From Rhizobiaceae bacterium (GTDB lineage: Bacteria; Pseudomonadota; Alphaproteobacteria; Rhizobiales; Rhizobiaceae), in contig JAIXTO010000112.1 of NCBI GenBank assembly GCA_027483885.1, positions 19,870-83,869 of the forward strand: DNA of 64,000 bases, read 5' to 3'. Numbering within the stretch: position 1 is the first letter of the stretch; every line of letters begins with the position of its first letter. The translations under genes and the position numbers were made by a program. Below are positions 59,087 to 60,509 of this stretch, piece by piece. The notes below the pieces were generated by a model. That model worked only from the letters and a program-made list of their open reading frames with translations, did no database searches and had not been told where the DNA came from.

Positions 59087-59614
59087 ATGTCTTTTGAAGC
59101 AAAAAGCGGGCCTTCCCCCGCAATCAGTCCTGCCGGGCCCGGCAATTTTCCAGCCTCCGCACCCGGCAATGCAGATGCCGCCCTGTCGGCCGCAGCGCAC
59201 GATCCGGCCGGCCTTTGCGGCGATCCGGCCGGTGTCGCCGACAGTCCGGCGCCGGATCTGGCATCGCATTTGGCATCGCCGGCCGGCATGTCGCCGGTTC
59301 AGGCCTGCGGTATCGTGCGCCATCTCGTGGATGAGTTGCTGATGCTGATCGGCGACCGCGTCCAGATGCGCCGCGACCGTCGCCGGGCGCTCTGCCACAT
59401 CCGCCAGATTGCCATGTATGTCTGCCACGTCTCGCTTGGCATACCCCAGAGCGAGATCGGCGAGGCGTTCGGGCGTGACCGCACGACGGTCGGCCATGCC
59501 TGCGGCGTGGTGGAGGAGAGGCGCGAGAATGCCGCTTTCGACGATTTCGTCTCGACCGTCGAGCGGATCGCCAACACCGTGTTCGGCCGCAGCGAGGTGG
59601 CGCGGCATGACTAG
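59087..59614 (+). CDS. DnaA-domain-IV-like HTH protein (GafY-like candidate)
   Basis: AAGAGGAG RBS 6 nt before ATG 59087. Pro/Ala-rich N-half. C-half IRQIAMYVCHVSLGIPQSEIGEAFGRDRTTVGHACGVVEERRENAAF aligns with DnaA domain IV (RQIAMYL...LPEIG..FGGRDHTTVLHAC.KIE). Confidence 0.75.
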   Translation: MSFEAKSGPSPAISPAGPGNFPASAPGNADAALSAAAHDPAGLCGDPAGVADSPAPDLASHLASPAGMSPVQACGIVRHLVDELLMLIGDRVQMRRDRRRALCHIRQIAMYVCHVSLGIPQSEIGEAFGRDRTTVGHACGVVEERRENAAFDDFVSTVERIANTVFGRSEVARHD

Positions 59615-60509
59615 GGCTGATGCACCCTCCGTCCCGCAGATTTTGCCGCCAACCCGCCCGCTGCTGCGCCTGTTGCGCCAGCTTTCGCGCGGCCCCTGCG
59701 CCATCGAGCCGGGCGAGACGCCGGTGCAGATTTTCCTCTGCGGCAACGGCAGCCGCCATGGCCATTCCCTTGACATCATTGAGGCGGCCGCCACCGCCGG
59801 TCTTGTGCAGAAGAAGGGGGCAAAACTTCTTGCGCGTCCGGAAACGCTGTCTTTCCTGCGCCGGCATCTGGGCGATGGCACGTGCGAAAACGTCGACGGG
59901 CGGGCAAAAACGACGGCGGGAAGAACGGCCGCGCGCGACAAGGGGATCGGCGGTCCTGCCGACGGCGTGGATTTTGCCGACCAGCATCGCGCCATCGTGT
60001 CCGATACGGTCGAACTTGAGGGGGGGCGCGAAAGGGTGCGGCGCAACCTTCTGGAATCGCCCCTCTCGGGCCTGACGCGATTGAAGGATCGCGAGGGCCG
60101 GCCGTTTCTTCCCCAAGAGGCCATCGAGGCGGGGGAGCGGCTGGCAGGTGATTTCGAGCGCGGCCATCTGCAACCGAAGATCACCGCCAGTTGGGAGCCG
60201 CGCCTGTCTGCCCGCGGCAAGGGCGAGGCAGGCGGCAAGGTGGATCTCACCGAAAGCGCCATGGCGGCCAGAGCCCGTGTCACCAGGGCCATCGAGGCCA
60301 TGGGGCCGGAACTCTCCGGCGTGGCGCTCGATATCTGCTGCTTCGAAAAAGGCCTGGAACTGGTGGAACGCGAGCGCGGCTGGCCGGTGCGCTCGGCAAA
60401 ACTGATGTTGCGCACCGCGCTCCTCACCCTTGCCCGCCACTATGCGCCGCCGTCCGCGCCCCGTTTCAACCACAGCTGGGGTGCCGAAGGGTTTCGCCCG
60501 CAGATGTGA
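59607..60509 (+). CDS. DUF6456-type protein with sigma-region-4-like C-terminus (GafZ-like candidate)
   Basis: ATG 59607 overlaps the upstream stop by 8 nt. C-terminus [47 protein letters not shown] looks like a sigma70 region 4 / LuxR-type HTH. Internal ATG of ORF 59409..60509. Confidence 0.7.
   Translation: [300 protein letters not shown]

Follow-up and report, generated by a model that had tools for sequence, protein, structure and literature searches.

A probable split gene transfer agent activator of the GafY/GafZ type in a Rhizobiaceae bacterium, with a conserved pair of inverted repeats upstream

Gene transfer agents (GTAs), virus-like particles by which arbitrary pieces of host DNA pass from cell to cell at the cost of the producer's life, possess an activator that is one fused protein, GafA, in Rhodobacter capsulatus and is split into GafY and GafZ in Caulobacter (PMC9632790, PMC11150451), as had been stated in an earlier interpretation of the locus described here from its letters alone (the sequence-only reading). 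The split form is commoner than the fused one, with 759 GafZ homologues in 1,331 alphaproteobacterial genomes, 494 of them with an adjacent GafY, and homologues of RogA are enriched in Rhizobiales (Gozzi et al., 2022; PMC9632790). For Hyphomicrobiales, passages of Sherlock and Fogg (2022, Cell Rep, PMC9638019) describe a 'gafA' that a small DnaA-like gene precedes, flanked by mucR on the upstream and sufE on the downstream side, report a similar arrangement in Agrobacterium and Brucellaceae, and equate the two split genes with the GafA-N and GafA-Cx constructs. The DNA analysed here is a 64,000-nt stretch (the window) of a Rhizobiaceae bacterium (assembly GCA_027483885.1, contig JAIXTO010000112.1, positions 19,870 to 83,869 of the forward strand). 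Two overlapping genes within it are probably Hyphomicrobiales orthologues of the split GTA activator GafY/GafZ. The data show their homology in sequence and in fold, the order of the genes, a translational coupling that is conserved, and motifs upstream that are conserved as well. The split-pair reading is correct but already published, as the passages of PMC9638019 cover the split gafA of Hyphomicrobiales including Agrobacterium; the sequence-only reading had the identity right, and the window holds one more orthologue. The only new point is a conserved pair of candidate operators upstream, a modest lead. The pair consists of two open reading frames (ORFs):

59087-59614, plus strand: gafY/hdaB-like gene (ORF1, 175 aa), ATG at 59087, TAG at 59612-59614
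59607-60509, plus strand: gafZ-like gene (ORF2, 300 aa), ATG at 59607, TGA at 60507-60509
59607-59614, plus strand: 8-nt ORF1/ORF2 overlap ATGACTAG, the ORF2 start lying within the ORF1 end

Against full-length R. capsulatus GafA (P0388, 382 aa), ORF2 aligned in BLASTP with 40% identity over 178 aa (E 3e-32), and in hhalign a profile of ORF2 relatives matched 21 fused GafA homologues with a probability of 100% (E 3e-50), residues 16-283 of ORF2 corresponding to GafA 115-374, that is, to the central region and the C-terminal DNA-binding part. When 20 fused GafA homologues were compared with a profile of the ORF1 family, their N-termini aligned to it without gaps, with a probability of 88.7% (E 2.6e-6), placing ORF1 110-164 on GafA 20-74, so that the two proteins tile GafA in order. 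The pair thereby carries both domains that characterize the GafA family, the DUF6456 domain equivalent to GafZ and the DnaA-domain-IV-like domain equivalent to GafY, and the assignment to a GafA/GafY/GafZ-type pair made from the letters is borne out, with significant matches to Bac_DnaA_C, DUF6456 and GafA alike.

ORF1 combines a disordered Pro/Ala-rich N-terminal half with a C-terminal half of the DnaA domain IV type, an architecture proposed beforehand on which Pfam, the PDB and AlphaFold/Foldseek agree. Residues 96-140 match Pfam Bac_DnaA_C (E 2.6e-12), and among PDB sequences DnaA domain IV is matched by 3pvp (E 2e-7) and 1j1v (E 1.6e-6). In the AlphaFold model, based on a 27-sequence alignment, residues 1-66 are disordered and rich in Pro and Ala, and residues 70-166 (nt 59294-59584) form six helices with a predicted local distance difference test (pLDDT) score above 90 over most of the domain; the ten best PDB matches of this model in Foldseek are all DnaA DNA-binding domains (3pvp with probability 1.0 and a target TM-score of 0.71). 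ORF1 also keeps, in the PDB alignment, what we take to be the counterparts of R399, D433, T435 and H439 of Escherichia coli DnaA. Its homologues mostly have about 140 aa and span the C-terminal two thirds of ORF1 only, the Pro/Ala-rich N-terminus being common only to the nearest relatives. As a DnaA replication initiator ORF1 can be rejected: domains I-III, including the AAA+ domain III, are absent, the N-terminus is disordered, and the TIGR00362 model is matched at positions 369-425 of 437 only, with 37.9 bits against a cutoff of 343.9.

ORF2 is of the DUF6456 type, as had been recognized (Pfam E 2e-45, aa 144-280). Its predicted model begins with a winged-helix-like domain (aa 12-90), modelled with confidence, which a disordered linker (aa 97-118) separates from a beta hairpin and a C-terminal domain made of helices; a low-complexity linker of about 25-30 residues is extra in comparison with other family members and lineage-specific. 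The high-probability Foldseek matches are region 4 structures of sigma-28, WhiG and SigL (for SigL its -35-binding domain), with target TM-scores of about 0.7 over 64-73 residues, so that the label of a sigma70-region-4-like helix-turn-helix (HTH) given by the sequence-only reading holds at the level of the fold, weakly, and fails by sequence, where Pfam gave no sigma match. A PDB sequence search returned no relative of ORF2 with a solved structure, and a search of PHROGs gave weak matches only (E about 1e-3). Membership in the sigma-70 family was rejected, sigma region 2 and a Pfam sigma match being absent and the likeness of the C-terminal HTH fold being weak.

Three points weigh against the orthology of the pair with the GTA activator. 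The pairwise BLASTP of ORF1 with GafA is weak (E 0.027); Foldseek with ORF2 against the PDB gave no E-value below 0.1, so that 'sigma-region-4-like', the best high-probability fold match, is a fair but weak description; and the equivalence to Caulobacter GafY/GafZ would follow by way of the published homology of GafYZ with GafA (PMC9632790).

The gene order argues in the same direction as the homology. Four neighbouring genes frame the pair:

58049-58477, plus strand: mucR/ros-type zinc-finger regulator gene (Pfam ROS_MUCR, E 9.5e-51)
60513-60947, minus strand: sufE, convergent with ORF2 (Pfam SufE, E 1.4e-45)
61128-61553, minus strand: DUF5330 gene (Pfam DUF5330, E 1.4e-23)
62001-63584, plus strand: DivJ-type histidine kinase gene (HisKA and HATPase_c domains)

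Orthologous loci were taken from a scan of species-representative genomes, and the locus counts given here and below are among the matches listed. The order Mrp antiporter, mucR, DnaA_C gene, DUF6456 gene, sufE (minus strand), DUF5330 gene (minus strand), kinase and PG_binding gene is identical in the window, in a close relative (L001) and in Agrobacterium tumefaciens (L004), and the order mucR-gafY-gafZ-sufE-kinase recurs in nearly all of the approximately 80 loci from Rhizobiaceae, Phyllobacteriaceae, Brucellaceae, Hoeflea and others. Flanked by mucR on its upstream and by sufE on its downstream side, the pair shows the Hyphomicrobiales-type synteny set out in the passages of PMC9638019. The position 'between mucR and divJ' proposed earlier is right with regard to mucR, which lies directly upstream, and less so for the kinase, which stands two genes away with sufE and the DUF5330 gene intervening. 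This kinase matches the NCBIfam DivJ model with E 8.7e-66, under that model's cutoff; the A. tumefaciens genes are Atu0916 (ros) and, five locus tags on, Atu0921 (divJ), with four genes in between, and by this interval, as found in L004, the kinase at 62001-63584 is the DivJ orthologue by position.

Translational coupling of the two genes, which had been read from the position of ATG 59607 inside the end of ORF1, was verified and extends to the orthologues: of approximately 85 orthologous loci, at least 36 have an overlap of 8 nt and at least 18 one of 4 nt (ATGA), so that the coupling is conserved and not due to chance. The same-strand 8-nt overlap is also the arrangement expected of two parts which, where not fused, are adjacent and co-transcribed with Y before Z. 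A Shine-Dalgarno sequence AGGAG at 59076-59080 stands six bases ahead of ATG 59087, and GAGG precedes the ORF2 start at 59607. At the other end, the stop codons of the convergent gafZ-like gene and sufE are separated by 3 nt (60507-60515 of the window), which leaves no room for separate terminators.

An exact look-up of ORF2 in public assemblies gave no entry. The closest relatives of the ORFs are JGI metagenome contigs with 92-93% identity, and the next best are Neorhizobium galegae with 63% and Rhizobium sp. SGZ-381 with 62%; among the matches listed in the scan of species-representative genomes the best identity is 50-56% for long matches and 67% for a segment that covers the DUF6456 half only. 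A search of 1.84 billion representative proteins gave 2112 matches, the best 150 of which are all short and of the split type. Two further observations concern the slot itself. In the metagenomic contigs L093 (15165-16104) and L095 (14244-15211), mucR and sufE are direct neighbours with gafY and gafZ missing between them; evidently the slot, conserved in other respects, can lack the pair. The assembly titled 'Bacillus subtilis strain SK6B4' (L083, JAHREI010000009.1) holds a complete mucR-gafY-gafZ-sufE-kinase locus of a layout near-identical to that of the Pseudochrobactrum loci L079 and L082 and is probably contaminated.

Upstream of ORF1 lies a gene-free region that had been estimated at about 600 bp and measures 609 bp, against 389 bp in A. 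tumefaciens. Its conserved elements, none of which has an assigned strand, are the following:

58950-58961: distal inverted repeat GGAAAATAATCC of the GGAA-N4-TTCC type with 1 mismatch, conserved across loci; candidate repressor operator
59034-59038: TCCCC block within TTTGTCCCCG, conserved among Rhizobiaceae loci
59051-59072: 22-nt block GGGTGTATGAATTAATTCCTAT, which contains the proximal repeat and does not differ between the window, L001 and A. tumefaciens L004
59058-59069: proximal inverted repeat TGAATTAATTCC of the GGAA-N4-TTCC type with 1 mismatch, directly 5' of the Shine-Dalgarno sequence; candidate repressor operator

The distal repeat is part of a second conserved block, GAGGAAAA(T/A)AATCC, which lies about 105 bp upstream of the 22-nt block in the gap aligned with L001 and A. 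tumefaciens. In the window the two repeats are 108 bp apart, and the pair recurs at 106-109 bp in 41 Rhizobiaceae loci, where the distal repeat is conserved as GA-GGAAAAWAATCC-CA, the proximal repeat keeps its half-sites GAA and TCC without exception (41/41) and the proximal core ends 15-23 nt ahead of the start codon. Other families have a single, often perfect repeat, for example TAGGAATATATTCCTA, instead of the pair. Over 82 orthologous upstream regions, the density of GGAA-N4-TTCC sites, up to one mismatch being allowed, is 3.55 per kb compared with 0.38 per kb in the remaining parts of the loci, the sites number 131 compared with 21.8 +/- 4.9 in dinucleotide shuffles, and at least one is present in 75 of the 82 regions. 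At the Caulobacter gafYZ promoter two inverted repeats of the GGAA-N4-TTCC type, the RogA site, have been reported; set beside them, the two conserved repeats here, each with one mismatch, appear to be of that motif type. By this likeness the repeat pair may represent RogA-type operators, which would predict control by a repressor. A bolder proposal, which we put forward tentatively as a possibility somewhat short of even, is that the repeats form a repressor switch handed down from the ancestor that Caulobacterales and Hyphomicrobiales share, with a RogA orthologue holding gafYZ off in Agrobacterium, Rhizobium and their relatives.

Several results count against the operator interpretation. 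In this window alone the motif is not enriched, with 29 matches against 26.6 expected, so that the idea draws only on conservation across species, among regions that are related by descent, and the Pfam survey detected no gene for a RogA-like (LexA/S24-type) repressor in the 64 kb. Alternatively, the inverted repeats could be promoter or 5' untranslated region elements, or sites for MucR, IHF or a GafY-like protein in autoregulation, a view that we regard as rather unlikely. The proximal repeat, at 15-23 nt from the start codon, may coincide in part with the -10 region or with the leader of the transcript. The upstream region is AT-rich (44-48% GC), and AT-rich DNA is the kind that MucR prefers. 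GafY and IHF bind the gafYZ promoter in Caulobacter, and here an A-rich tract and the TCCCC block, found at -24 or -23 from the proximal repeat in 28/41 Rhizobiaceae loci and often as TYATCCCCG elsewhere, lie between the repeats. This block presumably resembles the alphaproteobacterial DnaA box, a speculation on our part that is suggestive since the ORF1 product has a DnaA-type DNA-binding domain, and it could be an autoregulatory site of the DnaA-like GafY protein. The dyad symmetry of the repeats, the invariant GAA/TCC half-sites (41/41) and the fixed spacing of 106-109 bp are, however, typical of operators for dimeric HTH proteins, and the repeats match the motif type reported for RogA, which argues for repressor operators over promoter elements or activator sites.

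Other inputs to the region were sought with little result. The CtrA box TTAA-N7-TTAA is absent from the 609-bp gap even with one mismatch allowed, so that a CtrA input to the pair finds no support at the motif level; two near-matches with one mismatch each, at 61658-61672 and 61935-61949, are situated upstream of the DivJ-type kinase gene, where the DNA is AT-rich. No RNA family of Rfam matched within the mucR-ORF1 gap, and a scan for consensus promoters and terminators found nothing convincing upstream of ORF1. An ORF of 164 aa on the minus strand of the gap (58509-59003), with a 179-aa gene call in L001, was rejected as coding, being arginine-rich, failing the filter on GC content at third codon positions (GC3) and having no Pfam match.

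The extra length of the gap has a local origin. The GC-rich segment 58478-58940, its distal two thirds, is common only to the closest relative, with 80% identity to L001-L003, is lacking in A. tumefaciens as in the other loci, and has no second copy in the window; this lineage-restricted segment makes the gap 609 bp instead of about 390 bp. A degenerate tandem array of 15-nt units (58469-58588; consensus about GCCAAGTAACTGCAG, 6-8 copies) begins in the last codons of mucR and extends into the gap; it holds the palindrome TCCTGCAGGA twice, is present in a longer version in L001 and is missing in A. tumefaciens.

A GTA function of the pair in this genome we infer by analogy, and the steps of a possible mechanism are transferred from Caulobacter and Rhodobacter. 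The operon would be off in most cells, with an HTH repressor of the RogA or XRE kind sitting on the repeats at 58950-58961 and 59058-59069, some ten turns of the helix apart (the gafYZ promoter of Caulobacter is repressed by XRE-family factors as well), and MucR may add silencing across the AT-rich stretch 58900-59090. Once repression is lifted, one bicistronic mRNA would be made, on which the overlap ATGACTAG would couple translation so that both proteins are produced together and form a complex. The GafY-like protein would bind upstream of GTA promoters with its DnaA-domain-IV-like domain and recruit RNA polymerase, and the GafZ-like protein would bind the GTA cluster's promoter with its C-terminal sigma-region-4-like HTH and then ride RNA polymerase as an anti-terminator along the long head-tail cluster. 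The predicted output is GTA particles and the lysis of a subpopulation.

The co-occurrence of the family with GTA clusters is well documented. The two have been found to co-occur and to co-evolve (Gozzi et al., 2022; Kogay et al., 2022): of 208 alphaproteobacteria that bear a GTA, 196 have gafA homologues, and these co-evolve with the head-tail cluster (PMC9765227). GTA clusters have been reported in most Agrobacterium strains, in a 2019 preprint that also notes a gafA homologue alongside them (bioRxiv 10.1101/687996), and, according to passages of PMC9638019, in about 60% of Hyphomicrobiales genomes. In our scan of IMG/VR, a DUF6456 gene stands at the edge of a predicted viral region in four contigs, in three of which the genes for a GTA-type large terminase, portal, S78 protease and HK97-type capsid follow directly. 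These three are L086 (1-8833), L088 and L089; in L086 a gene for an acyl-CoA dehydrogenase (5631-6770) is inserted between portal and protease. In L053 (20109-20546), L057 (19861-20466) and L059 (20399-20776), three loci from Hyphomicrobiales, a GTA-type large terminase gene begins some 10 kb downstream of gafZ, which suggests that activator locus and GTA cluster are loosely linked in Hyphomicrobiales. A PDB search with the HK97 gp5 sequence did not match the RcGTA capsid.

These findings bear on the reading of the pair as a conserved transcription-factor module whose regulon lacks a working GTA, the cluster being lost or decayed or never having been included, and which may instead control stationary-phase, envelope or host-interaction genes. 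Searches of open-access papers and preprints gave no report of GTA production in Rhizobiaceae, in agreement with the earlier statement that it is undemonstrated in the Agrobacterium/Rhizobium group. Two facts that tell against a GTA role also speak for such a module: the Pfam survey of about 50 further genes encountered no phage-like or GTA structural gene in the 64-kb window, and in L001, the close relative, the 10 kb downstream contain none. In addition, Caulobacter GafY alone occupies about 18 further promoters, Brucella homologues have been flagged in screens as virulence or fitness factors, as mentioned in passages of PMC9638019, and the tight conservation beside mucR and divJ would also fit a housekeeping regulatory role. 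Nevertheless, the co-evolution of gafA homologues with head-tail clusters (PMC9765227), the frequency of these clusters in Agrobacterium and Hyphomicrobiales and the adjacency of DUF6456 genes to GTA head genes in some lineages make a module devoid of a GTA improbable.

Least well placed is the proposal that ORF1 would be an HdaB, a short stationary-phase protein made up of DnaA domain IV that binds HdaA and blocks the regulatory inactivation of DnaA, enabling a quick restart of replication, with ORF2 unrelated or accessory. This rival was missing from the sequence-only reading and draws on the first description of Caulobacter GafY (CCNA_01111) as HdaB with that activity (PMC7049699). A homologue from Brucella abortus gave the same toxic over-replication phenotype in Caulobacter, and ORF1 is a short alphaproteobacterial protein which retains residues and fold of DnaA domain IV as its only such domain. 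The HdaB phenotypes (extra DNA, division block and death) have, however, been reinterpreted as consequences of GTA induction (Gozzi et al., 2022; PMC9632790), and the conserved coupling to a DUF6456 protein, a partner that HdaB activity leaves unexplained, together with the fusion in GafA favours one joint transcriptional function; we consider this proposal very doubtful. The roles of HdaB and of a GTA activator are not mutually exclusive.

Apart from the locus, the window holds a cobalamin riboswitch (Rfam RF00174, 101.6 bits) at 32588-32803, upstream of a CbtA cobalt-transporter gene (33129-33947), and an overlapping minus-strand pair of a RES-domain toxin and an Xre-like antitoxin of the MbcA/ParS type (16216-17383). 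The sequence of L001 ends with a gene for a penicillin-binding protein (peptidoglycan synthase).

With respect to significance, GTA production by plant-associated Rhizobiaceae would bear on gene flow among crown-gall pathogens and nitrogen-fixing symbionts, and the activator genes are a natural handle for testing it, an idea already in print. The locus adds one orthologue from a Rhizobiaceae lineage whose closest named relatives are 62-63% identical. If the ancestral RogA switch holds true, the loss of one repressor or mutation of the two operators would turn on an RcGTA-type particle in a group without a shown example; the two candidate operators, pointing to a RogA-type repressor, would offer a simple genetic route to try switching the system on. 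Open-access papers and preprints yielded no study of RogA outside Caulobacter.

Compared with the known systems, the two proteins share folds with larger families of which neither is a member, as ORF1 has the DnaA domain IV fold and the C-terminus of ORF2 resembles the HTH of sigma-70 region 4; neither belongs to the phage Q-type anti-terminators. HdaB (Frandi and Collier, 2019; PMC7049699) belongs to the same protein family as ORF1 and differs in its proposed function, the inhibition of the regulatory inactivation of DnaA via HdaA. GafA of R. capsulatus (rcc01865) is a single protein of 382 aa, reported beside lipA (lipoyl synthase) and gua1 (GMP synthase) and not between mucR and sufE, and its N-terminal domain is more diverged from DnaA than ORF1, with no Bac_DnaA_C match on record. 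GafY/GafZ of Caulobacter crescentus (CCNA_01111/01112) likewise form a split operon of two genes, a DnaA-domain-IV-like protein followed by a DUF6456-type protein; GTA activation, anti-termination, dependence on IHF and repression by RogA have been shown for the Caulobacter pair only. The closest match is the split gafA of Hyphomicrobiales, of which passages of PMC9638019 describe the same succession of a small DnaA-like gene and a DUF6456 gene of 22-32 kDa, and the main text and Document S1 passages of that paper do not mention the upstream inverted repeats. The neighbourhood of the pair is the Hyphomicrobiales mucR/sufE synteny, from whose other representatives the present locus differs by the 66-residue disordered extension of ORF1, the extra linker of ORF2 and the longer upstream gap.

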